53,725 nt of DNA, taken from an uncultured Verrucomicrobia subdivision 3 bacterium. Lineage in GTDB: Bacteria > Verrucomicrobiota > Verrucomicrobiia > Limisphaerales > UBA11358. How positions within the stretch are numbered: the stretch's first letter is position 1; every line of letters begins with the position of its first letter. The notes beneath the pieces are model-generated. The model did no database searches. It was not told where the DNA came from and saw only the letters and a program-made list of their open reading frames with translations. A program made the position numbers and the translations under genes. This document shows positions 877 to 35,594 of this stretch, piece by piece. The stretch covers positions 1-53,725 of the forward strand of contig CAILDU010000143.1 in assembly GCA_903833055.1 (NCBI GenBank). Reading direction: 5' to 3'.

Positions 877-1975
877 TAATATCTTCAATCCGCAATACTG
901 GGCGCTCGTGCCGTTCCATTTTTGGTCGCTGGTATTCTTTTCGTTTGGCTGCATCGTCGGCAGTTTTTTGAACGTCTGCATTTACCGGATGCCGCTGGAC
1001 TTGAGCGTCGTCTCGCCGCCGTCGCATTGCCCGCATTGTAAATACTCGATCCCATTTTACCTGAACGTGCCGCTGCTGACGTGGCTCTCGCTGCGCGGCA
1101 AATGTAAAAATTGCGGCGCGCCCATCTCGCCGCGCTACTTCATCGTGGAGCTGCTGACCGGCGTGACATTTCTCGCGTGCTGGCTGGCGTTCGGCCACGC
1201 GTCGCCGTGGATCGCGGCGGTCTACTGCCTGTTTCTTGCGGGACTGATCACGGCGACGTTCATTGATTTCGAGCATTTTATTATTCCCGACGAAATCACT
1301 TTTGGCGGCGCAGCCGTGGGATTTGTGATTTCAATTTTTCTGCCGCAATTGCACGGAACAAATTCTTTACGGGAAAGTGTAGGACGCAGCGCGCTGGGCA
1401 TTGCGATTGGTGCGGGTATCGTTTACGCCGTGCTGCGATTGGGAAAATTACTGTTTGGCCGACAAAAAATAAAATTGCCGGACGGCGCAAAAATTATTTT
1501 TACCGAAACCGCGCTGTGTCTGCCGGACAGTGTAATTCCCTACGAAGAAATTTTTTATCGCAAAACGGACGCCATTGTTTTGCAAGCGCGGACGGTGGAG
1601 TTAATTGATCGTAGCTACTGCAACGTCGCGCTGCGACTGACGCCGGAAATGCTCAAGCTCGGCGACGAAAAATTTAATCCAGAACACGAGCCGCACATGG
1701 ACGTGGTCTGTTCGGAAATTATTTTGCCGCGCGAGGCGATGGGTTTGGGCGACGTAAAATTCATGGCTGGCATCGGCGCGTTCATCGGCTGGCAGGGCGC
1801 ATTTTTTTCGCTGCTGGCAAGTTCGCTTATCGGTTCGGCGGCGGGAATTGCCTTGATTCTATTACGCAAACGCGAGTGGTCGTCGCGGATGCCTTACGGC
1901 CCTTACATTGCGCTGGCGGCCGTCATCTGGATTTTCGGCGGCAAAAAACTTTTCGATTTGTTGTTCCAGATGTGA
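866..1975 (+). CDS. pilD: type IV prepilin peptidase / N-methyltransferase (A24 family)
   Basis: CPHC...CKNCG zinc-ribbon box, multiple TM segments and a GLGDVKF second aspartate box. Overlaps the aroE stop by 11 nt. Confidence 0.85.
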   Translation: MGFDNIFNPQYWALVPFHFWSLVFFSFGCIVGSFLNVCIYRMPLDLSVVSPPSHCPHCKYSIPFYLNVPLLTWLSLRGKCKNCGAPISPRYFIVELLTGVTFLACWLAFGHASPWIAAVYCLFLAGLITATFIDFEHFIIPDEITFGGAAVGFVISIFLPQLHGTNSLRESVGRSALGIAIGAGIVYAVLRLGKLLFGRQKIKLPDGAKIIFTETALCLPDSVIPYEEIFYRKTDAIVLQARTVELIDRSYCNVALRLTPEMLKLGDEKFNPEHEPHMDVVCSEIILPREAMGLGDVKFMAGIGAFIGWQGAFFSLLASSLIGSAAGIALILLRKREWSSRMPYGPYIALAAVIWIFGGKKLFDLLFQM

Positions 1976-1983
1976 GCAATTTT

Positions 1984-4900
1984 TTAGCGGAACGAGAGAA
2001 TGACTTTGCTGCCGTCGCGCCGCAGTTCCCCTTGCTTGAGAAATAATCTTGCCGCTGTAACTTTGCCGCTCGCCAACAAATAATTTTGCACGGCCTTCGC
2101 GCGATTGGCGGCGAGCGTTTCCAAATCGCCATCGTTCACGGGATATGTCGCAAGCAAAACGGCCTCGGTCGGGTCGGGCGGGGGAACGAGCTTGGTTTGA
2201 TAACCCGCTTCCGCCGCCGATTTCGGCGCGCCGCCGCCGCGTTTCAATTTCATCGCACCCTTATCAAATGCACTATTGCGTGGCAAAACCTGCGCGGCGT
2301 AGGCGACAAGATTGGAGTTTGCCGCGAGCAGTTGCGGCGTAACTTTGCCGGCGGCGACGGCTTCGGCATAAAGACGCTTCACCCATTTCGCGCGGACTTC
2401 CGGCGTGAGCACAATCGCGTCCACGGAGTTCGTGGCTTGTTCGGCCTTGCGAAATTTCTGCCAGAGGCGCGTGCGGATTTCGCGGTCAATCGCGGCGCGC
2501 TCCAAACCTTCGCAGTCGCCGTTCGCGTCCACGCTGCCGGTGATTTCCAAATTCAGCGATGGGCGCGAGTAAAGTCCTTTCAGCAGCGAATCCAATTTTG
2601 ATTTGTCTGCCGCCGATAATTCCGCGCTGCCGAGCGCAAAATCCTGCTGGCTGAGTTCTTCGCCGCCACCGCCAAACACCGCGCCCAGCAAGGAGAACGG
2701 CGAGGTGGCGACCTTCACCAAAATATTTTCGATGACGCGCACCACGACTTTGCCCACGCGGAATTTCGGGTCGCTCAAATCGCCTTGAACCGGCACGTCC
2801 AAAACAATTTTCCCTTCGCGGTCTTTCAACAGCGCAATCGCGAGTCGCACCGGCAGATGCGTCGCATCGGGACTTTCCACCTTGTCGCCAAAGTTAAACT
2901 GGTCGAGCGTAATGACATTTTTGGAATCCAATTTTTTGCCGATGAGTTCGTAATTCAGGTCGAGATTCAATTTTCCTTCCGCGATTTCGTAGCCGGCAAA
3001 CTTGCCCGCATACGGACTCGCCGGCGTTAAATCCATGTCCTTCACCGAAATGGTGATGTCGTTCGTTTGCGTGCTGTTCAGCGGATTGATTTTGCCGGTG
3101 ATGGCGATGGGGCCAACGCCATCCGCCTTTGCGTGTAAATCAACAATGGCGTGTTGCAGTTGTTCCGAGGAAATTCCCGAAATGCTTCCGTTCATGTCCT
3201 GAATCGCCAGACTCACATTCGGCTGCATCGAATGATCGGTGAAACTTACCGCCGTATTCGTGATGATAATCGCGACGACGGAAACCTGCGGCAAAGTTGA
3301 ATTGGTCGCGGCTGTTGGAGTTACAGCGGCAATTTTTGTTTCGCTCGTCGCGGGAGAATTTGTATTCGTCAAACGCAGCGCATTGAGCAGATTGATTGTT
3401 TTATTGGTCTCGATGACGAGCCGCGCGTAAGCACCGTTCACATCAATTTCCTTAATCTTTACCGACTGCGGATTGAGGTTGGCGTCAATGCCGTTGATTT
3501 GGAGCGAATCCCATTTCAACAAGTCGTCGCCCACCGCGCCGTCCACCGTGCGAAAATTATCCAGCCACGCATCGCCGTGAAAAACGACTTGCGGCAACAC
3601 ATTATCTGGCGTGGTCAGGGTGAGCAGGCCGTGCAAACCAACTTCGCTACCGAGGATGAACAGATTTACTTTCGGTTCGAGATACGGATCAAGCGAGCCG
3701 AGGTCGAGCTTGTCCAAATCAATTTGCACATTCGCCGTCGGCGGCAAAAATGAAGCGCTGACGATGGTCTTGATGGAACCATTTTTATTCCAGCGTAACG
3801 AGAGTTCGGCGGTGAGATTTGTGCCCGGCAGGTTGGAAATATTTTTGGCCGTGAGCGAAATCTCGGTGAGGTCGAGTCGCGCTGGACGGGAATTCACGCG
3901 GTCTTCCAGATGCACCGCGCAGTTGGTGAAATCCACCGCGTTGACCGCGCCGCGCCATTGATTTGTGCTTTCCATCAACATCGCGACGGCGTTCGTGACG
4001 GAGCGGAGCAGTAGTAAAATTCCGTCGCCCGCCGCCGCGTTTGGCACGGACGGTTTGGAAAGTTCGACGACGTTGATGGCGGCATTTTGGTCGCGGCTTA
4101 AAAATATTTTTGCGCCTTCGGCACGAACAGAATCAATCGTAGCTTTGCGCGTTTGCAAATCTGCGCTCATGCCGGCGACGCCGAAGACGGGCAATTCCGC
4201 GAGATTATTGCTGTCGTTGGGCGAACCCAGTTTGAAATCGCGCAATGCAAACGCAGTGTTGTTCACGGACGCGGTGAGGTTAGTGCCGTCCAGTTTGAAT
4301 TTATAATTCACGTCCAACGCGATTTCGCCGTCGCGGATTTCAAACTTAAAGAAGTCCTGATACAGCGGGGCGTATTTGTTCAGTGTAAAATTGAACAGCT
4401 TCAACTCGCCTTCCGAGCGCAACGGCGAGAGATAGAAAAATCCGCGCCAAGAAATTTGTTCGCCCGCGTCCGTCGTGCCGGTGAAGGCGTAGGGATTTTT
4501 GTTGTCCGGGTCGGTGCGGAAATCATCGAGCGTGATGTCCAGCGGGCCGAGCGCGCGTTTGAACGGCGTGCGCGGCGAAAAATCCGCATACGCCGCGACC
4601 GCGCCGCCGATGTGCAATTTTCCAATGTGCAGCGCAATTGGTTTGGATTCGGTTTTCGCCTGTGCTGGCGCGGCGTTGGTGGAAAACTTGGTGATGAGGT
4701 CGGTGAAATTAAAGGTGCCGCCTTTGTTCATCTGCACGCGGACGAACGGTTTGGACGTGCTGATTTCCTTGAACACCCACGCGTGACCGAAGAACGACGA
4801 CAATTGGAAGTTCACATAAACTTCATCCCACGAAACGAACGGCTCGCCGTCCTTGTCCTTGATAAGCAGCCCGCGCACCGTCGTGGAGAGCGCGAACGGA

Positions 4901-5142: not shown

Positions 5143-6459
5143 TCAGATGGCGAAGTCCGCGTATTCCGGCTTGGCAGCTTCGAGCGGCGGAAACAACATG
5201 CCCGCCGCGACCGTCGCGTTCGAGCCTTGTTCCACAAGGATGAACGAGCCGGTAAGCCGGTTCGTTTCGTAGCCGTCGAACAAGAGTGGTTTCGCCGTCT
5301 TGAGGCGAATCGTGCCGATGTCATTCAGCGCAAGTCCGGCGGGATTCGGTTCTGCATCGAAGGTTTCAAAGTTGATTCGATTTTCAATCTGCGTCACCGC
5401 GACCTGAACCATTTGCGTCGTGTGCTTGAGATAAAACTTTTTGCCCGCTGACAACGGACGTTGATTCATCCAGCAAATGCGCGCCTGCAAATCGGTGCTG
5501 CGCCCCGGCAAATTTTCGAGGCCGACAATCATATCGCCACGGCTTACGTCAATGTCGTCCGCCAAACAAATTGTCACCGACTGCGGACAAAACGCTTCGG
5601 CGAGCGAACCGTCGTAACTCCAAATTTCTTTCACCTTGGATTTAATTCCGGCGGGCAGGATGACGACTTCCTGACCCGCGCGCACGATGCCGCTGGCGAT
5701 TTGTCCGCTCAAGCCGCGAAAATCGTGCAGCTCCTTGTTCGTCGGATTGTTCGGACGGTTGACCCATTGCACCGGAAAACGGAACGTGCTCAAATTCCGG
5801 TCGCTCGCGATGTGGACAGTTTCGAGATGATGCAGCAATGCCGGCCCTTCAAACCACGGCGTTTTCGTGGAAGCATCCACGACGTTGTCGCCGGACAGCG
5901 CGCTCATCGGAATAAATTTTACGTCGTGAAACGAACCGAACTTCGGCAGAAAATCTTCAATCTCATCGCGAATTTCCGTGAAGCGTTCCTCGCTCCAATC
6001 CACCAAATCCATTTTGTTGATGGCGATGACGAGATGTGGAATGCCAAGCAGCGCCGCGATATAAGTGTGTCGGCGCGTCTGCTCAATGACGCCCTGTCGC
6101 GCGTCCACCAGCACGATGGAAAGATTTGCCGTGCTCGCGCCCGTGACCATGTTGCGCGTGTATTGCACATGACCCGGCGTGTCGGCGACGATGAATTTTC
6201 TTTTCGGCGTGGCGAAGTAACGATACGCGACATCAATCGTGATTCCTTGTTCGCGTTCGGCGCGCAGTCCGTCGGTGAGATTGGCCAAATTTATTTGCCC
6301 ACCGCCGGTGATGGTGGCGGATTTTTCCATCGCCTCGATCTGGTCTTCCATCAGCGACTTGGAATCGTAAAGCAACCGGCCAATGAGCGTGGACTTGCCG
6401 TCGTCAACACTGCCGCAAGTATTGAAGCGCAAAAGTTCGATGGGATGCGTATGGGGCAT
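5143..6459 (-). CDS. cysN: sulfate adenylyltransferase subunit 1 (GTPase)
   Basis: GSVDDGKSTLIGRL P-loop and DTPGH motif, EF-Tu-like architecture, adjacent to cysD. Confidence 0.9.
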   Translation of the reverse strand: MPHTHPIELLRFNTCGSVDDGKSTLIGRLLYDSKSLMEDQIEAMEKSATITGGGQINLANLTDGLRAEREQGITIDVAYRYFATPKRKFIVADTPGHVQYTRNMVTGASTANLSIVLVDARQGVIEQTRRHTYIAALLGIPHLVIAINKMDLVDWSEERFTEIRDEIEDFLPKFGSFHDVKFIPMSALSGDNVVDASTKTPWFEGPALLHHLETVHIASDRNLSTFRFPVQWVNRPNNPTNKELHDFRGLSGQIASGIVRAGQEVVILPAGIKSKVKEIWSYDGSLAEAFCPQSVTICLADDIDVSRGDMIVGLENLPGRSTDLQARICWMNQRPLSAGKKFYLKHTTQMVQVAVTQIENRINFETFDAEPNPAGLALNDIGTIRLKTAKPLLFDGYETNRLTGSFILVEQGSNATVAAGMLFPPLEAAKPEYADFAI

Positions 6460-6494
6460 TTTAGGAGATGGGAGTTGGCAGATGGAAGTTAGGG
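6460..6494. repeat. heptamer tandem array (5 units: TTTAGGA GATGGGA GTTGGCA GATGGAA GTTAGGG) filling the cysN / four-helix-bundle intergenic gap
   Basis: Read directly: 7-nt periodicity over 35 nt. It contains TAGGAGATGGGAG, the inverted partner of 6870-6887. Confidence 0.8.
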
Positions 6495-6869
6495 TTATGC
6501 GACTCGCGCGCGGGTGGAACGAATCAGACCGGAAACCAATCGCCCGGTTTGGGCGACTTGTTCAAGCAATGTTTTATGTTCTTGTTCAGAAAGGTAACTC
6601 GCATCAAGCATGACGTAAGATAGCGAACGCACCTCGCCACAGGAAGCGCGTGCTACATTGTAAAATTGCAATTTCTCGCCCGGATGAACGCGTTCAAAAC
6701 CTTCGGCAATATTGGTCATGGCCGATACGGCCGCGCGCTGAATCTGATCTCGCAACCCGAAATCAAGCGACGCGGGTTTGCGCCGGAAGAAAGCATAAAC
6801 TGCCCGAACAAGTTCCCTTGCCGTGCGCCAGGCCTCAAGTTGCTCAAAATTTTCAATCCTATCTGTCAT
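6495..6869 (-). CDS. four-helix-bundle protein (23S rRNA intervening-sequence protein / Avd family)
   Basis: 124 aa, all-helical. The FEQLEAWRTARELVRAVY start and NIAEGFER...A.GE motif are characteristic of the TIGR02436/PF05635 family. A GGAG sits directly upstream of the ATG. Confidence 0.8.
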   Translation of the reverse strand: MTDRIENFEQLEAWRTARELVRAVYAFFRRKPASLDFGLRDQIQRAAVSAMTNIAEGFERVHPGEKLQFYNVARASCGEVRSLSYVMLDASYLSEQEHKTLLEQVAQTGRLVSGLIRSTRARVA

Positions 6870-14436: not shown

Positions 14437-15014
14437 TCTTTCTTCCGGCGCACACAGCGCATCGGCGTCAGCATAAAATCCACCTTCGCATCGTGCGGCT
14501 CCGATGGGATTTTTTCCAGCAATTGAAAATCGTGGCAGACGCCGCATTTTATCCCGCTCGCATTTTCCAGCAACCGGTCGTAAAAACCCTGGCCGCGACC
14601 AAGCCGGTTGCCGCTAAAATCAAACGCCATTCCCGGCACGAGGATTAAATTAAACTGGTTCAACGGAATTTCCGCGCAACTCGCCGCCGGTTCGCGCACG
14701 CCAAATTTTCCGGCGACGATGTCCGTCGCCAGCGTTTGAATTGTTTTTGCGCCGTAAGTTTTTTTCTCCGCGTCAAAAAAGGGCAGGGCGCAGTTCACAC
14801 CCAGCGCCAGCGACATTTCCAGCACCGGCCAGACATCCAGTTCATCCGGCAGCGGCGCGAAAAATAAAATCGTGTGCGCGCTCGGAATCTGTGCCTGCAA
14901 CCGCTCGCACAGCCCGATGGATTCCACCGCCCGCACCGCGTCGGAAATTTTTTCCAGCCGCGCGCGGATGTGCGCGCGCAGGTCGGATTTGGAATTGGCG
15001 ATGGAAGAATCCAT
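14433..15014 (-). CDS. ygfA: 5-formyltetrahydrofolate cyclo-ligase
   Basis: LILVPGMAFDFSGNRLGRGQGFYDR motif. I prefer the start at MDSS (15014), because the track start at 15116 overlaps hicA. Confidence 0.85.
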   Translation of the reverse strand: MDSSIANSKSDLRAHIRARLEKISDAVRAVESIGLCERLQAQIPSAHTILFFAPLPDELDVWPVLEMSLALGVNCALPFFDAEKKTYGAKTIQTLATDIVAGKFGVREPAASCAEIPLNQFNLILVPGMAFDFSGNRLGRGQGFYDRLLENASGIKCGVCHDFQLLEKIPSEPHDAKVDFMLTPMRCVRRKKD

Positions 15015-15018
15015 GCCG

Positions 15019-15234
15019 TCACAAATTATCCACGAATTCTTCCGGTGAGATGCCCGCCTGACGCAACACGCCGCGCAACGTGCCTTGATCCACTTCACGG
15101 TGCATCGGCACAACACAGACGCTGCCGCCGCGCCGCAGCACGAGATGGCTGCCTTTTTGCCGCTGGCGGACGAAGCCCAGACGCTCCAGTGCTTTCGCTA
15201 CCTTTGCGCCGGAAACGCAGGGGAGTTTAGGCAT
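15019..15234 (-). CDS. hicA: HicA-family mRNA interferase toxin
   Basis: 71 aa; KVAKALERLGFVRQRQKGSHLVLRR is a typical HicA/YcfA pattern. Confidence 0.8.
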   Translation of the reverse strand: MPKLPCVSGAKVAKALERLGFVRQRQKGSHLVLRRGGSVCVVPMHREVDQGTLRGVLRQAGISPEEFVDNL

Positions 15235-15436
15235 GTTCCAACTCGAAGGTGGTCAGGATGGCGCCGCTGCGGTCGGGCAGGTCCTGCTCCTCCAGAAACA
15301 GCGACGTGGCTTCCTTGAGATTTTTCAACGCCTCCTCGACCGTCTTGCCCTGCGTGGTCGTGCCGGTTTCGGGATTGTAGGCCACCAGCCAGCGTTTGGT
15401 TTCACCGGGATAGATAATCGCCGTGAGCGTCTTCAT
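15227..15436 (-). CDS. hicB: HicB-family antitoxin (UPF0150-type)
   Basis: 69 aa with the GKTVEEALKNLKEA motif. Overlaps hicA by 8 nt. Confidence 0.75.
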   Translation of the reverse strand: MKTLTAIIYPGETKRWLVAYNPETGTTTQGKTVEEALKNLKEATSLFLEEQDLPDRSGAILTTFELEHA

Positions 15437-15611
15437 GCGGCCAAGCTAAACGATGCCGACACCGTTGGCAAATGGGGAAAAACATTCTTGACCGTTGATT
15501 CTCGCGGATTGACGCGGATAATTTTCCGGCGCACACTCGCCGCTGTCCGAAAATAAAATACAAACAACGATTATTATTTAATTAACAATTTTGCGTAGCT
15601 ACGGCTACGGG

Positions 15612-15726
15612 CTGCACCGAAAACCTGGAAATTTTCAAGCCCGCACACAGCAACCGACCGAGCGCGCCCAAATGGGCGCGGCTTGGCGTGCTTGCTGTGT
15701 AGGCGCTTCCAGGTGCCTCGGTGCAG
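15612..15726 (+). ncRNA. GC-rich rod-like hairpin (about 115 nt), candidate structured RNA or leader upstream of the methyltransferase
   Basis: Nested complementary segments: CTGCACCGA/TCGGTGCAG (15612-20 with 15718-26), CCTGGAA/TTCCAGG (15624-30 with 15707-13), ACACAGCAA/TTGCTGTGT (15645-53 with 15692-700), and CGCGCCC-AAAT-GGGCGCG (15663-80). An AT-rich stretch precedes it and a T-run follows at 15748-56. Strand is assumed from the downstream genes. Confidence 0.45.
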
Positions 15727-15791
15727 GGTGCGTTAAGTCCGCGCCTCTTCTTTTTTAGAATTCCCGTTTCCGCCCGCTCGCAGCGGAAACC

Positions 15792-16778
15792 ATGGCAACT
15801 AAAAGTTCAAATTCATTTTTGCAAAAGGCAAAGTCCGCAAAAAAGGATGAGTTTTACACGCAACTTTCTGACATTGAGAAGGAACTAAAAAATTACAAAG
15901 CGCATTTGAAAGGCAAAGTCGTCTTGTGCAATTGCGACGACCCGCGCGTCAGCAATTTTTTCCACTATTTCTCTTACAAATTTAAGCAGTTAGGGTTGAA
16001 GAAGCTCATCGCAACCTGCTACAAAAATCAGTGTGCTGACCTCTTCAGTCAAAACGATTCAGAAAAGGCGATCTACTTGGAATATAATGGTGACAAAAAT
16101 GGAAACAACATTCCCGACTCCGAAGAAATCGGCATTAAGCAATTAAAAGGCGATGGCGATTTTCGCAGTGCTGAATGTGTTGAGCTATTGAAGAGGGCAG
16201 ACCTCGTCGTGACCAATCCACCGTTCTCCCTATTCCGGGAATATGTTGCCCAACTCGTCGAACATGATAAGAAATTCATTATCATCGGCCACCAGAATGC
16301 GATTACCTACAAAGAGATCTTCAAGCTGATTAAGGAAAATAAACTATGGTTGGGATATGGCTTCAACCGTAATTGCGCGCACTTCATAAACCGGCATTAC
16401 GTTGATTATGCATCAGACGCCGACCACAGGGAAGGAATGATAAGAGTTTCAGGCGTTCAATGGTTCACAAATATGGACACCACGAAACGCCACGAAGAAT
16501 TAATTTTATACAAAAAATATCATCCTAACGAATATCCAAAATACGACAATTACGATGCAATCGAAGTTAGCAAGACGACGAATATTCCGATGGATTATGC
16601 CGGCCCTATGGGCGTTCCCATTACGTTCCTTAACAAATATAATCCCGACCAATTTGACATCTTGGGAAATCTTGGTTCGTATGCGCCTGATGGCTATTCC
16701 TTGATTGGGGCAATTTTCATCAACAAAAAGAAGATTTATAAACGCATCCTTATAAAAAATAAAAAACCTTTGGTATGA
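15792..16778 (+). CDS. adenine-specific DNA methyltransferase, EcoRI-methylase-like family
   Basis: DEFYTQ N-terminal motif, VTNPPF catalytic motif (NPPF), 328 aa, AT-rich codon usage. Confidence 0.75.
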   Translation: MATKSSNSFLQKAKSAKKDEFYTQLSDIEKELKNYKAHLKGKVVLCNCDDPRVSNFFHYFSYKFKQLGLKKLIATCYKNQCADLFSQNDSEKAIYLEYNGDKNGNNIPDSEEIGIKQLKGDGDFRSAECVELLKRADLVVTNPPFSLFREYVAQLVEHDKKFIIIGHQNAITYKEIFKLIKENKLWLGYGFNRNCAHFINRHYVDYASDADHREGMIRVSGVQWFTNMDTTKRHEELILYKKYHPNEYPKYDNYDAIEVSKTTNIPMDYAGPMGVPITFLNKYNPDQFDILGNLGSYAPDGYSLIGAIFINKKKIYKRILIKNKKPLV

Positions 16779-17881
16779 ATATTGAACTGAAAAGAATAAC
16801 CGTTGGCGAATTGGCGGATGGCTATGAAGACAACGCGGAAGGTGGCGTTGTTGCGTTCGGCGGCAAGCTGGACGTGCGGCCGCCGTATCAGCGGGAGTTC
16901 ATCTACAAGGACAAGCAGCGCGATGCCGTCATCAACACCGTCACCAAAGGTTTTCCGCTGAACGTGATGTATTGGGCGGTGCGTGCGGACGGCGGCTTTG
17001 AGGTGATTGACGGGCAGCAGCGCACTATTTCCGTTTGCCAGTATGTGACGGGCGTTTTTTCGTTTCAAAACTTGTATATCCACAATCTGCCAGACGACGT
17101 GCGGGAAAAAATTCTCGGCTACAAGCTCATGATTTATCAATGCACCGGCACGGACAGCGAGAGGCTTGATTGGTTCAGAACGATCAACATTGCAGGAGTA
17201 AAACTATCAGACCAGGAATTGCGGAACGCCGTCTATGCCGGCTCGTGGGTTTCCGACGCGAAACGATATTTCAGCAAAACAGGCTGTGCCGCATATCAAA
17301 TCGGACAAGATTATCTCGATGCTGAACTAAATCGTCAGGGATATTTGGAGACCGCTATTGATTGGATTTCGGAAGCATATGGGAACGCGGACATCATCGA
17401 GAAATACATGGGCAAGCATCAGCACGCTAAAGACGCCAAGAAGCTTTGGGAGTATTATCAAGCGGTGATTGATTGGGTGGGTGAAACATTTACCAAGAAG
17501 CGAAGCAAAATAATGAAGGGCGTTCCGTGGGGTGTTCTCTACAATAAATTTAAGGACGAAAAGTTTGACCCGAAGAAAATCGAGGCAGAGACGGTGAAGT
17601 TGATTGACGATGACGAAGTGACAAATCAAAAAGGAATTTACCGATACATTTTGACGCGCGACGAAAAATATCTCTCGCTCCGCACGTTCAACGATAAGGA
17701 GAAGCAAAAGGCTTACGAAAAACAAAAAGGCATCTGCCCGAAATGCCCGAAGTCAAAGCATTGGGAGCTTGAAGAAATGGAAGCCGACCACATTACGCCG
17801 TGGCACGCAGGCGGGAAAACCATGCTGGATAATTGCCAGATGCTTTGCAAAGACCACAACCGGAGAAAGTCAGGGAAGTAA
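16775..17881 (+). CDS. DUF262 (ParB/Srx-like NTPase) - HNH endonuclease fusion protein
   Basis: The N-terminal RPPYQREFIY...IDGQQR motif is typical of DUF262. The C-terminus CPKC...EADHITPWHAGGKTMLDNCQMLCKDHN is a canonical HNH. An ATGA overlap couples it to the methyltransferase. Confidence 0.8.
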   Translation: MNIELKRITVGELADGYEDNAEGGVVAFGGKLDVRPPYQREFIYKDKQRDAVINTVTKGFPLNVMYWAVRADGGFEVIDGQQRTISVCQYVTGVFSFQNLYIHNLPDDVREKILGYKLMIYQCTGTDSERLDWFRTINIAGVKLSDQELRNAVYAGSWVSDAKRYFSKTGCAAYQIGQDYLDAELNRQGYLETAIDWISEAYGNADIIEKYMGKHQHAKDAKKLWEYYQAVIDWVGETFTKKRSKIMKGVPWGVLYNKFKDEKFDPKKIEAETVKLIDDDEVTNQKGIYRYILTRDEKYLSLRTFNDKEKQKAYEKQKGICPKCPKSKHWELEEMEADHITPWHAGGKTMLDNCQMLCKDHNRRKSGK

Positions 17882-17889
17882 TCCGTGTT

Positions 17890-19278
17890 TCATCCGTGTG
17901 CATCTGTGGTATTCCGTTTTTCTGAAAATTGTTTCCGCCAGTTTTCGAGGCGCTCCTTGATTTTCTTTTCCACGCCTTGTTCCGTCGGCTCGTAATAAGT
18001 TTTGTCCACGCCCAGATAATCTTGCGCGACGAAATGGTCCTTGCCGTCGTGCGCGTATTCGTAGCCTTTGCCGTGGCCGAGCCGTTCCGCACCCTTGTAA
18101 CTTTTATCGCGCAAATGTTCCGGCACGGCCAGCGTGCGACCGGAACGCACGTCTTCCAGTGCGGCGTCAATCGCCATGTAAGCGGAATTACTTTTGTTTG
18201 CCGTGGCGATGTAAATCGTCGCTTCGGCCAATGGAATCCGCGCTTCCGGCCAGCCGACAAATTCCGACGCGGCGAGGCACGCGTTCGCCAAAACCAAAGC
18301 CATCGGGTCGGCGAGGCCGACATCTTCCGCCGCGCAAATCACGATGCGCCGCGCGATGAAGCGCGGGTCTTCGCCGGCGTGAATCATCTTGGCGAGCCAG
18401 TAAAGCGCGGCGTCGGGATCGCTGCCGCGCATGGATTTGATGAACGCGGAAATGGTGTCGTAATGCGCGTCGCCATCACCGTCATAAACCACGGCCTTTT
18501 TCTGGATGCTCTGCGCGGCGACTTCCAGCGTGATTCGGACAACGCCATCAGTATCTGGTGAAGTTGTCAGCGCGGCGATTTCGAGCGAGTTGAGCGCCTT
18601 GCGCGCGTCGCCGTCGGCGATTTTGGCAAGATGGCGCAAGGCGTTTTCATCGGCGGAAATTTTCAGATAGCCGAGACCGCGTTCCTCGTCTTTCAACGCG
18701 CGTTGCAGCAATGAAAATAAATCTTCTTCCGTCAGCGGGCGCAGTTCGAAGATTTGCGAGCGCGAGACGAGCGGCGAATTGACGAAGAAAAACGGATTGT
18801 GCGTCGTCGCGCCGATGAGCTTGATGACGCCGCTCTCGACATCCGGCAGCAAAACATCCTGCTGTGATTTGTTGAAGCGGTGGATTTCGTCAATGAAGAG
18901 AATTGTGGATGCGCCAGTGTTTTCAAGGCGATTGGCCGCTGCTGACAAAACGCGCCGCATATCGGCGACGTTGGATTCCACGCCGCTCAATCTTTCAAAT
19001 TTTGATTTGGTCTGCCGCGCGATGATTTGCGCGAGCGAGGTTTTTCCCGTGCCGGGCGGCCCGTAAAAAATCAGCGACTGGATTCTATCTGCTTCAATGG
19101 CGCGGCGCAAAAGTTGGCCGCGGCCGAGGATGTGGGTTTGCCCAGCATACTCATTTAAGTTGCGCGGGCGCATCCGCGCGGCGAGCGGCTGGCTGCGAAA
19201 GTTATTTTCGGCGGCGGACACAATTTCTTCTTCCGGCAATGCTTTTGCCGGTTGGGAAAATAGTTCGTCGCGCGCCAT
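17890..19278 (-). CDS. rarA: replication-associated recombination protein A (AAA+)
   Basis: GPPGTGKTS Walker A, IDEIHRF box and MgsA C-terminal domain. The last codons and the stop lie inside the right repeat arm of cassette C. Confidence 0.9.
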   Translation of the reverse strand: MARDELFSQPAKALPEEEIVSAAENNFRSQPLAARMRPRNLNEYAGQTHILGRGQLLRRAIEADRIQSLIFYGPPGTGKTSLAQIIARQTKSKFERLSGVESNVADMRRVLSAAANRLENTGASTILFIDEIHRFNKSQQDVLLPDVESGVIKLIGATTHNPFFFVNSPLVSRSQIFELRPLTEEDLFSLLQRALKDEERGLGYLKISADENALRHLAKIADGDARKALNSLEIAALTTSPDTDGVVRITLEVAAQSIQKKAVVYDGDGDAHYDTISAFIKSMRGSDPDAALYWLAKMIHAGEDPRFIARRIVICAAEDVGLADPMALVLANACLAASEFVGWPEARIPLAEATIYIATANKSNSAYMAIDAALEDVRSGRTLAVPEHLRDKSYKGAERLGHGKGYEYAHDGKDHFVAQDYLGVDKTYYEPTEQGVEKKIKERLENWRKQFSEKRNTTDAHG

Positions 19279-19315
19279 GCGGAGACGTTAGCAGTTGAAG
19301 TTGTTTGCCCAAAAT

Positions 19316-19346
19316 AAAAAAGCCCGCACGGGTGGCGGGCTTTGAT
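19316..19346 (-). terminator. rho-independent terminator
   Basis: The minus strand reads AAAGCCCGCCACCCGTGCGGGCTTTTTTATTTT: a GC stem followed by a T-run. Confidence 0.75.
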
Positions 19347-19382
19347 TGCCGGGTTGCTAAAAGCAGTCCGGTAATCTTGAAA

Positions 19383-19570
19383 GAAACCCCGCCATTGCCG
19401 TGTCTAACTGTATCCTTCGGACATATGTTTCCATATGTGGGACTCGCCCGATGGCTTACAACTTTCGGACGTAATGCCGACGTGTTGGCCACCGTCTGCG
19501 GCTCATCCCGAGTTCGTTTTATTTACGGTCCAAGGACTGTTGCGAATCACGCACAGGGCAGGGAAATTAT
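19383..19570 (-). ncRNA. ssrS: candidate 6S RNA
   Basis: On the minus strand, the 5' end AAUUUCCCUGCCCUGUGCGUGAUUCGCAACAGUCC and the 3' end ACAGUUAGACACGGCAAUGGCGGGGUUUC resemble the E. coli 6S termini. The closing stem CCCUGCC-CUGUG pairs with CACGG-caau-GGCGGGG using G-U wobbles. Length is about 190 nt, in a 450-nt gene-free gap, followed by a terminator. Confidence 0.5.
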
Positions 19571-34352: not shown

Positions 34353-35594
34353 CCACAGATTTCCACAGATGAAACACAGATGGGGAAACGCCAAGACATT
34401 AAGTCGCCGACCAGAATTCAATTTGCTATTAAACGGTTTAGTTCGCCGTAAGTCTTACCTCGGTGTTTTTCAATAAAAGTTGCTAAAACGCGCCAATAAT
34501 TTCTTTTACGATACTTGGTAAGTGTATTGCATAACCAAGTAATGCAGCCCCTACTATCACAAGTTGTTTATGTTTATTAAACACTTTATGCCTCGCAATA
34601 GAATAGGCGGGTCGTTTAATTGCGCCCCATAATGTTGAATGAATGGAAAGCAGCCCTGCTAGAGTGAGTAGCAGGACAACCAAAAACAACCACGCCACTC
34701 CATAAAATCCCAAGAAACAAATTACATAGTCAAAATGAGAGTGTGCTACGAATCCATATAAAACTCGCCCCGTGCTATCAGTGTTTTTGTAAAGACTGCT
34801 ACTCATTGTATAGACAATAAATCCTATAACCATTAAGGCTAAAATTATCCCCTTACTTTTGTTATTAGATTTTTTGCCTATGAATACAGTTTCAACAACA
34901 TTACGAAATATAGGTGGAAACTGAATAATTGCTATCAATGCAAATACAAGAGGGGGCGCATTGATAAACAAATAATCAATCATAGTCATATCGGGATATA
35001 CGTCAGGGCTGATTTTTGAAAAATAAAACGTATCTGTTACTATTTGACATAAGAAAACAAGGATGGAAACCGTAGCAGTAATTAACCACAGCCGTTTACT
35101 TTGCTGATATGTCTTTAGAAGCGGTGATAGTAACAATGCGAGAAATGAGACAGCGAAACTGAATTGGCTAACATTGTGTAATAGGAAATAGTCCAAAGTT
35201 AGTCCCCTGCTCGCAAAATATATTGTGCAGATAGACACCATGGAACTTATTGTAAGAAAAGATAAGCAGCAGTTAGAAACCAGATTTTGTTTAGTCCATA
35301 CCTTATCACCAAAGATTTTAGTTATCCCTAAATTAGCAGCCAGTCCTAGTTTCTGAATAATTGTGACATGGCCACGAATAGCTTTTTCACTCTTTTCATC
35401 TAGAAATCGCCAAAGCTCATCTAACTTATTATGTATAGTATTTTCCTCATTTTCATAAAGGAAAAGACCGCAATACACAAATACCGCACCGGCCATTCCA
35501 GCCAAGCAATGAGAATCAAAAACAAGCCAGTCCATATTTTTGTTTTACTGGATAGGCTTGCCGAATCTGTGTTTCATCTGTGGAAATCTGTGGC
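34352..35594. mobile_element. cassette D: 1243-bp element with perfect 30-bp terminal inverted repeats and TA/TA flanks, carrying one AT-rich membrane-protein gene
   Basis: 34352-34381 GCCACAGATTTCCACAGATGAAACACAGAT is identical (30 of 30) to the reverse complement of 35565-35594. Each arm has three CACAGAT units, spaced 10/11 bp and mirrored. TA lies at 34350-51 and 35595-96. Confidence 0.8.
34483..35535 (-). CDS. orphan polytopic membrane protein (about 8-9 predicted TM helices)
   Basis: 350-aa ORF, strongly AT-rich, with multiple long hydrophobic segments. I recognise no family motif. Confidence 0.6.
   Translation of the reverse strand: MDWLVFDSHCLAGMAGAVFVYCGLFLYENEENTIHNKLDELWRFLDEKSEKAIRGHVTIIQKLGLAANLGITKIFGDKVWTKQNLVSNCCLSFLTISSMVSICTIYFASRGLTLDYFLLHNVSQFSFAVSFLALLLSPLLKTYQQSKRLWLITATVSILVFLCQIVTDTFYFSKISPDVYPDMTMIDYLFINAPPLVFALIAIIQFPPIFRNVVETVFIGKKSNNKSKGIILALMVIGFIVYTMSSSLYKNTDSTGRVLYGFVAHSHFDYVICFLGFYGVAWLFLVVLLLTLAGLLSIHSTLWGAIKRPAYSIARHKVFNKHKQLVIVGAALLGYAIHLPSIVKEIIGAF

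Follow-up and report, generated by a model that had tools for sequence, protein, structure and literature searches.

We analysed a contig of 53,725 nt from an uncultured Verrucomicrobia subdivision 3 bacterium (CAILDU010000143.1, GenBank assembly GCA_903833055.1), hereafter the window. It carries two adjacent genes, M and R, which encode an EcoRI-family DNA methyltransferase and a nuclease that joins a DUF262 domain to an HNH domain (Table 1). The M stop codon and the R start codon overlap within the junction sequence GGTATGAAT. Tight M/R junctions are also annotated elsewhere, with a 1-nt overlap in Aeromonas and a 4-nt overlap in the cultured Flavobacterium phage vB_FspS_laban6-1, which has the same M-then-R order. 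Both genes are AT-rich (GC content 0.40 for M and 0.49 for R versus 0.54 for the whole window). An earlier note on this DNA had proposed a restriction or defence module here; its reading frames, their overlap and the AT-richness were all reproduced, and both proteins are full-length matches to restriction-modification (RM) models of PADLOC. M is preceded by a structured leader RNA, part of a module that consists, in order, of a promoter-like site, an A-rich spacer, the 157-nt core, a terminator-like hairpin with a U-rich tail, a UUCCCGU box and a hairpin abutting the start codon. We consider it likely that the pair is a horizontally acquired two-gene RM operon with a lineage-native promoter-leader.

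Table 1. Features of the M-R locus and of the region upstream of it; positions are those of the window.
Feature	Position	Strand	Basis
Promoter-like TTGATT-16 nt-GATAAT, about 70 nt upstream of the leader	15495..15522	+	consensus match alone
Structured leader RNA, 157 nt	15592..15748	+	covariance model R1, 181 bits
Terminator-like hairpin (third leader helix), then CTTCTTTTTT	15726..15756	+	terminator scan
Start-proximal hairpin GUUUCCGC...GCGGAAAC, ending 1 nt before the M start codon	15766..15791	+	sequence
M, EcoRI-family (PF13651) N6-adenine DNA methyltransferase, 328 aa	15792..16778	+	open reading frame, Pfam, PADLOC
NPPF motif of M, residues 142-145	16215..16226	+	sequence
ATGA shared by the M stop codon (TGA) and the R start codon (ATG)	16775..16778	+	sequence
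R, nuclease with DUF262 and zinc-ribbon HNH, 368 aa	16775..17881	+	open reading frame, Pfam, PADLOC, AlphaFold2 (AF2), alignment

M belongs to the EcoRI_methylase family by a full-length match above the gathering score (PF13651, E-value 7.9e-132; 440 bits, cut-off 26.4; residues 10-324 aligned to positions 2-345 of the 345 in the model), and it has the NPPF motif of adenine methyltransferases that the earlier note had pointed out. It also matches the PADLOC model PDLC03297 (MTase_II) with an E-value of 6.3e-121, residues 1-326 aligning to positions 1-330 of 332. A full-length comparison with M.EcoRI, whose gene neighbours that of R.EcoRI on an E. coli plasmid, gives 50.8% identity. In turn, M.EcoRI is up to 68.7% identical to a methylase linked to a DUF262-HNH protein (locus L064), a relation as close as the one to another methylase linked to an EcoRI nuclease (66%). 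Hence, a single methylase clade is paired with either R.EcoRI or a DUF262-HNH protein, which suggests that the latter takes the place of a classical methylation-blocked restriction endonuclease. A sequence search of the PDB returned no match for the methylase.

R combines the two domains that had been claimed for it. GmrSD_N (PF03235, DUF262) is matched at its N-terminus (E-value 1.5e-17, above the curated cut-off) and HNH (PF01844) at its C-terminus (E-value 4.1e-9, 36.9 bits against a cut-off of 21.4), so that profile searches recovered all three families named in the earlier note. The PADLOC model PDLC03418 (REase_II) covers the whole chain (E-value 3.7e-130, residues 1-368 on positions 1-372 of 372); weak partial PADLOC matches to NsnA, PD-T4-2_A and mREase_IV were also recorded. 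The motifs YQREF (38-42) and IDGQQR (78-83), the latter the (I/V)DGQQR signature of an N-terminal DUF262 in GmrSD, are separated by a helical middle region from a zinc-ribbon HNH domain with CPKC (321-324), D338-H339, N353 and CKDHN (358-362), the zinc-ribbon HNH residues being C321, C324, D338-H339, N353, C358, H361 and N362. We aligned 113 family members (36-91% identity) and found Q39, R40, D79, G80, R83, N138, Q147, E148, C321, G347 and N353 to be invariant, and Q81, Q82, H339, C324 and C358 to be at least 90% conserved. Selection therefore acts on the DGQQR pocket as well as on the HNH/zinc site. The HNH assignment thus has a match above cut-off, H339, N353 and the zinc ligands C321, C324 and C358, all conserved, and the degradation of DUF262 or HNH catalytic residues that the earlier note had considered as a refutation was not found among the 113 members. 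No DUF1524 (PF07510) match was found in R by Pfam; the C-terminus is a PF01844 HNH with a CxxC...CxxH zinc site.

The AF2 model of R, built from the 113-sequence alignment, has a predicted local distance difference test score (pLDDT) of 94.5, with 92-98 over residues 300-360, and a predicted template modelling score of 0.83; it supersedes a first run on 38 close homologues (pLDDT 56.7), in which the N-domain was unfolded. A Foldseek comparison of the model with the PDB gave no whole-chain relative and no match at E <= 0.001. By domain, the N-terminal part resembles BrxU and SspE as well as the CTP-binding domains of ParB and Noc, and the C-terminal part aligns with the Gme HNH nickase, McrA and the HNH domains of Cas9. 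PDB sequence matches to R are HNH fragments alone, namely McrA (6ghc) and Gme HNH (4h9d). NCBIfam holds no model for M or R beyond sub-threshold likeness of the HNH domain to Cas9d and IscB; these matches are weak and far below cut-offs, and they lend no support to RNA guidance of R.

The earlier note had called the system undescribed, and this did not survive: PADLOC-DB v2 (2023) holds full-length Type II methyltransferase and restriction endonuclease models for both proteins. With separate, adjacent, co-oriented methyltransferase and endonuclease genes, both matched by RM models, the locus has the organization of a Type II RM system, and standard defence annotation would label it RM type II. 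As to whether the pair matches a characterised subtype, the answer is divided, since it is catalogued in PADLOC-DB as Type II but no characterised member was found. The PADLOC papers do not state the seed sequences of PDLC03297 and PDLC03418, and our literature searches returned no description of a system made of a DUF262-HNH protein and an EcoRI-family methyltransferase. Overall, M and R are a true pair of a widespread RM family, catalogued as Type II, and were acquired recently; the nuclease architecture of this family, a ParB/Srx pocket with an HNH domain, appears biochemically unexplored.

The pair is not rare; it belongs to a large and promiscuous family. A word-indexed search gave at least 8000 hits, the best 120 of which are all full-length with at least 68% identity. 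When 1.84 billion representatives at 50% identity were searched exhaustively, 4816 proteins passed E <= 1e-3 and 492 passed E <= 1e-30, and most of the 150 best matches listed are 360-420 aa long. Among genomes taken one per species, 465 relatives were detected, and the synteny counts that follow rest on the best 80 of them. These 80 share 65-86% amino-acid identity, and their hosts fall into more than 12 phyla (Verrucomicrobiota, Omnitrophota, Chloroflexi, Planctomycetota, Bacteroidota, Patescibacteria, Gamma-, Alpha- and Deltaproteobacteria, Campylobacterota, Acidobacteriota, Ignavibacteria, Spirochaetes and Armatimonadota). Such identity across so many phyla is a signature of rampant horizontal transfer. 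The M-then-R order is also found on plasmids of Enterococcus faecium (41% identity) and Aeromonas caviae.

The earlier note had suggested that co-occurrence of the two genes be examined. We found an EcoRI-family M on the same strand within 450 nt upstream of R in 73 of the 80 loci. Among the seven exceptions, two contigs leave no room for the gene, three have M 1-2 kb upstream, and two have no M in the 0.8 and 1.7 kb available upstream. In one representative protein of 688 aa (P0160), a partial EcoRI_methylase domain is fused to DUF262 and HNH, which reflects either a natural single-chain form of the system or an error of assembly or a frameshift.

Comparison with other loci supports the cassette-type boundaries proposed for the unit. 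In another Verrucomicrobiota genome (L003), about 2.35 kb is common with the window at 85% identity (window 15533-17882, L003 3762-6108). This homology comprises about 260 nt upstream of M, M itself and R, and ends 3 nt past the R stop codon; the flanking genes are unrelated. The unit of leader, M and R stands in other contexts on three further contigs, and no recombinase accompanies it. Names within the RarA cluster of the window point to a Verrucomicrobiae bacterium, and the insertion site is visible in a Verrucomicrobiae relative (L215) whose RarA falls in the same 90%-identity cluster. There, rarA is followed after 409 nt by the gene for 5-formyltetrahydrofolate cyclo-ligase (MTHFS) and the same 255-aa gene, and the 409-nt slot (6348-6756), empty of the cassette, holds a different AT-rich ORF (open reading frame) of 101 aa. 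In the window, the slot between rarA and MTHFS spans about 2.9 kb (14999-17928) and contains hicA, a hicB-like gene, the leader, M and R. The rarA/MTHFS slot is therefore a variable site. The hicA toxin gene (PF07927, E-value 1.3e-16) overlaps the hicB-like DUF7387 antitoxin gene at 15019-15436 on the minus strand, and the two are absent from L215. Short CGTG-rich repeats, such as CATCCGTGTGCATCTGTGG, lie 3' of the R stop codon (17882-17912); similar repeats follow the cassette of locus L089 and may be a lineage-specific intergenic repeat.

We compared the pair with known systems. The EcoRI system shares the PF13651 methyltransferase family and the two-gene Type II-style operon. However, its nuclease is unrelated: R.EcoRI has the PD-(D/E)XK fold, whereas the window R is ParB/Srx-like plus HNH. 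The gene order also differs, being R then M on EcoRI plasmids and M then R, with the ATGA overlap, in the window. With GmrSD, BrxU and SspE, which are nucleases of DUF262 and DUF1524 with known domain roles (PMC4619093, PMC10952713, PMC12707154), R shares the N-terminal DUF262 with its DGQQR pocket, a helical linker and a C-terminal His-Me-finger nuclease. Unlike them, it has a zinc-ribbon PF01844 HNH in place of DUF1524, and its 368 aa are some 200 residues fewer than in BrxU and SspE chains (560-580). It is also paired with a methyltransferase, which implies methylation-blocked rather than modification- or phosphorothioate-sensing restriction. KpnI, Hpy99I, PacI and McrA have a beta-beta-alpha-metal HNH core with a zinc site, as R does (PMC4081073). 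McrA is among the sequence and fold matches of R but KpnI, Hpy99I and PacI are not, and the likeness of R to McrA and Gme HNH is confined to about 50-130 residues.

The leader upstream of M folds into a 5' mini-hairpin (GCGUAGC-UACG-GCUAC), an imperfect long hairpin of about 110 nt with conserved internal loops, and a third hairpin, which is kept across the leader family together with its T-rich tail. The earlier note had already reported a structured RNA at this place, and two lines of evidence bear it out. The leader sequence folds more stably than its shuffles (z = -6.5), and its helices covary. Covariance model R1 was built from five sequences (the window, L003, L088, L089 and L004), and the window differs from the others by compensatory changes, such as GCACCGA/UCGGUGC versus GGUCCGA/UCGGACC and CCUGG/CCAGG versus CCGCG/CGCGG. 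In an alignment of 82 sequences, 33 of the 49 pairs change on both sides, and single pairs show up to six pair types. Paired cells make up 92.1% of this alignment versus 32-47% with the partners slid by 1-3 columns, and none of 500 shuffles reaches any of the observed measures. The alignment was fitted to the R1 model and hence favours structure; the effect size, together with an independent MAFFT/RNAalifold result, nevertheless makes the leader structure secure. G-U pairs outnumber A-C pairs 2.9-fold (371 versus 128), and this excess favours folding of the gene-sense strand, i.e. of an RNA.

The sequences around the core are also kept. A GATAAT...CGCACACTCGCCGC stretch recurs upstream of many leader copies (L088, L168, L170, L124, L107, L121, L094 and L152), and the recurring flank reads GATAAT...CGCACACUCGCCGC. 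On the 3' side, a family-wide UUCCCGU box precedes the start-proximal hairpin, and in the minimum free energy folds of 29 members of the leader family, pairing involves on average 7.5 of the 12 nt that precede the start codon. GC content is 0.63 in the leader versus 0.40-0.49 in the cargo genes, which suggests a host-lineage module set before imported genes. Rfam 15 gave no match over the leader in the window or in 11 other members (E <= 0.1-1), and our literature searches returned no RM-associated RNA motif. Pairing between the leader and the M-R junction, calculated with duplexfold, differed from shuffles by about 2 standard deviations and was uninformative.

The earlier note had tied this RNA specifically to the gene pair, and here our data disagree. 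Among 87 sources that hold the RM family, R1 found the element in its five source sequences only, and it is absent from the other 75 genome loci. Thus the leader is not a general part of the EcoRI-M/DUF262-HNH system, nor part of the enzyme mechanism. Instead, it precedes unrelated RM systems. For a metagenome search we derived a pattern from the RNA alone, GCGTAGCTNCGGCTNC followed by 90-115 nt and GGTGCCT, for which roughly a dozen chance matches are expected. At least 120 matching stretches were found, and all 80 fetched loci were confirmed by R1 (51-166 bits). Only one leader copy was found in a viral contig collection.

We then took a census of downstream genes with Pfam and PADLOC at the 34 loci with a same-strand ORF of at least 150 aa starting -30 to +130 nt from the leader. 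The first ORFs are 13 Type III Mod (N6_N4_Mtase), three Type I HsdM, three HSDR_N_2, two MmeI-type and two Eco57I-type proteins, one Mrr-like protein, several helicase/PLD proteins and a single EcoRI-family M (L120). The last is followed by a DUF262-HNH protein 40% identical to the window R. Among the second genes are five ResIII, a Type I S subunit and a GmrSD_N protein. Upstream genes are heterogeneous (glycosidases, transporters, regulators and others). The orientation of the leader is fixed, and a median of 44 nt separates it from the start codon, with subgroups at about 20-55 nt and 73-99 nt. In our data the leader looks like a family outside Rfam that precedes Type I, II, IIG and III RM genes of unrelated families, at about 40-90 nt from them. 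One 4.7-kb contig (L173) carries two leader copies facing each other, at 887-1038 (+) and 3696-3844 (-), with short ORFs between them.

For the gene pair, we suggest the following mechanism. M would methylate adenine at N6 in a short target and so protect the host chromosome. R, its translation coupled to that of M, would be the cognate endonuclease, whose HNH domain may cut DNA that lacks the M mark. By analogy with GmrSD, BrxU and SspE, the ParB/Srx-like DUF262 domain with its intact DGQQR pocket most likely binds or hydrolyses nucleoside triphosphates and thereby gates or clamps the nuclease; we infer that nucleotide binding or hydrolysis gates R cleavage. The logic would be inverted relative to these enzymes, with methylation blocking cutting rather than triggering it. 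The operon would be expressed from the GC-rich promoter-plus-leader module, which is seemingly native to Verrucomicrobiota. Synteny and the exchange of partners with R.EcoRI support R as a methylation-blocked restriction enzyme.

DUF262 is best known from GmrSD, BrxU and SspE, and one could therefore expect R to be a modification-dependent Type IV nuclease, similar to GmrSD, that acts against foreign modified DNA, with M unrelated or accessory, for example marking self for another purpose. BrxU and SspE are among the Foldseek domain matches, the weak partial PADLOC matches point the same way, and one R stands without M (L020). However, the best PADLOC match of R is a full-length Type II endonuclease model, and DUF1524 is missing. 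GmrSD is expected to stand alone without a cognate methyltransferase, whereas here an upstream M is near-obligatory, the junctions overlap and a fused M-R protein exists. Moreover, M proteins of this clade also occur with R.EcoRI, whose cutting is blocked by methylation, and a nuclease directed against DNA marked by its own co-translated methylase would kill its host. The partner swap, the fusion protein and the co-translation argue strongly against Type IV restriction, which we regard as very improbable, and the near-obligatory linkage argues instead for the modification-blocked action that the earlier note had put forward. Still improbable, though less so, is a role of the pair mainly as a selfish addiction or mobility module, acting by post-segregational killing or HNH homing and not in phage defence. 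The extreme horizontal spread (65-86% amino-acid identity over more than 12 phyla, plasmids and phage), the tiny size of a cassette that sits in a variable slot beside a hicAB toxin-antitoxin pair, and the avoidance of many palindromes by the cassette itself would all fit such a module. Classical Type II RM systems act likewise, so these features are compatible with restriction; no integrase or transposase accompanies the cassette, and its ends show no conserved target site or duplication.

For the leader, the likeliest role is that of a cis-acting attenuator or translational gate that would set or co-regulate the expression of restriction systems. Known regulation of RM operons includes C-protein/operator circuits and the antisense RNAs of EcoRI. 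Like such regulators, the element would be a dedicated one at the 5' end of an RM operon, and its layout of structured domain, terminator-like hairpin and start-proximal hairpin resembles that of riboswitch-type transcription attenuators. Unlike in C-protein circuits, the window locus encodes no C protein, and the element is an RNA of about 157 nt common to unrelated RM types. We tentatively propose, at somewhat less than even chances, that the module of about 260 nt (15495-15791) is an RNA class dedicated to RM on a portable GC-rich Verrucomicrobiota platform, with foreign, AT-rich RM genes of any type (I, II, IIG or III) placed behind it. It would control transcription by way of the terminator-like hairpin and translation by way of the hairpin next to the start codon, in response to a common signal, either a metabolite such as S-adenosylmethionine (SAM) or a protein. 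Separately, R could be the first nucleotide-switched, methylation-blocked restriction endonuclease of a Type II-like kind. Alternatively, the element may not be cis-regulatory, being either an independent small RNA gene that terminates at the T-run and serves as an insertion hotspot, or an attC-like single-stranded DNA recombination site that mobilises RM cassettes. Both would agree with the terminator-like hairpin and T-run ahead of the coding region, with the position of the element at the 5' edge of a mobile unit in several contexts and with its GC content of 0.63, unlike that of the cargo genes; for attC, a GTTAAGT beside the hairpin fits, by eye, the integron R' consensus GTTRRRY. Nevertheless, the fixed orientation, the narrow spacing to the start codon, the conserved UUCCCGU box and start-proximal hairpin 3' of the element, and the 2.9-fold excess of G-U over A-C for the gene strand speak against either version, and we consider the two together unlikely. 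Upstream neighbours are not conserved, so that the element is no fixed housekeeping locus. An integron attC was rejected on account of the co-oriented position upstream of genes, where attC sites lie downstream, of single copies at most loci in up to 14 kb, without arrays, and of an integrase near just one of 54 loci. The gene for 6S RNA, ssrS, classically lies upstream of ygfA/MTHFS. We rejected 6S RNA for the leader, which has no Rfam match, is oriented against MTHFS on the other strand, moves together with the cassette and has MTHFS near none of 81 other copies. The small-RNA hotspot, attC-like and 6S readings are thus ranked below a promoter-leader.

Several observations weigh against an RM operon with its own regulatory leader. 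Most loci of this RM family lack the leader, and the link of the leader to RM genes stems from one metagenome sample of unassigned taxonomy, in which 80 of at least 120 matches were used. An intact DUF262-HNH gene in an Ignavibacteria metagenome-assembled genome (L020, 1635-2780) has no M in the 1.7 kb upstream. Our literature searches found no biochemical characterisation of any member of the R family, PDB sequence and fold searches found no solved structure of it, and in their sources the homologues are named merely "DUF262 domain-containing protein", "HNH endonuclease" or "hypothetical protein". Site avoidance is a further point. GAATTC is only mildly depleted in the window (17 observed versus 30.4 +/- 5.7 expected), and no palindrome is specifically depleted in the flanks of 73 carrier loci pooled. 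Finally, the cultured Kangiella aquimarina DSM 16071 (L026) carries the pair, with an M 74% identical to that of the window, and in its single-molecule real-time (SMRT) methylome GAATTC methylation is not among the detected motifs (PMC4752239 supplements). Some copies of the pair may therefore be silent. The Kangiella methylase gene B158DRAFT_0961 (M.Kaq16071ORFDP), which we equated with the M gene of L026 by position alone, is predicted to be GAATTC-specific and "possibly active", with no partner nuclease listed; the motifs AGTACT (56% methylated) and CYGATG were left without an assigned enzyme (PMC4752239). Upstream of the R gene of L020 lie two unannotated ORFs of 209 and 187 aa, and this R may be solitary or differently partnered.

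The target of M can be guessed from its relatives. M.EcoRI recognises GAATTC, and 50-69% identity falls below what is normally trusted for motif transfer. M.CjeNI, of the EcoRI_methylase family, was first reported to be GAATTC-specific, and SMRT sequencing later gave RAATTY (PMC3526280). Our guess is that M would methylate a palindrome with an AATT core, e.g. GAATTC or RAATTY. Site avoidance allowed no conclusion on the target, since the window avoids many palindromes and GAATTC mildly, and the carrier flanks lack a specific depletion. Observed versus Markov-expected counts over the window (1-53725) are 0/50 for GTAC, 0/19 for CTCGAG, 2/44 for CCGCGG, 0/8.6 for CAGCTG, 0/8.2 for GTCGAC, 0/5.5 for ATCGAT and 95/233 for GATC. 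The imported cassette likewise lacks the sites that the window avoids, and in the 73 carrier loci cassettes avoid many sites generally. Such extreme avoidance suggests a lineage under heavy restriction pressure from multiple systems. GTAC or AGTACT was rejected as the target: carrier genomes do not generally avoid GTAC (observed/expected 0.80), and its absence from the window is hence a host feature.

If a ParB/Srx nucleotide switch does control a methylation-blocked HNH enzyme, the mechanism would extend beyond chromosome segregation and Type IV or phosphorothioate defence to classical restriction, and R could be the first Type II-like restriction enzyme that is both switched by nucleotides and blocked by methylation. 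The architecture is common (492 clusters at 50% identity, hundreds of species) and yet without a descriptive name, and the family might yield new reagent enzymes. The leader RNA may matter more than the nuclease pair. Neither Rfam 15 nor our literature searches yielded a cis-regulatory RNA common to restriction systems. If our proposal is true, a cell with many restriction systems could switch them together, and a module found before Type I, II, IIG and III operons would make it testable how RM-rich cells coordinate or tame these systems. The module would also serve as a marker for defence genes in Verrucomicrobiota.

Two minor features were noted elsewhere in the window. A second AT-rich patch (GC content about 0.45 over 34-36 kb) contains, beside a LacI-family regulator, a 350-aa ORF on the minus strand (34483-35535) for which Pfam gave no match. 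At 19314-19400 on the minus strand, Rfam gave a sub-threshold Trp_leader match (28 bits versus a gathering score of 41); this GC hairpin with a U-run is probably just an intrinsic terminator.

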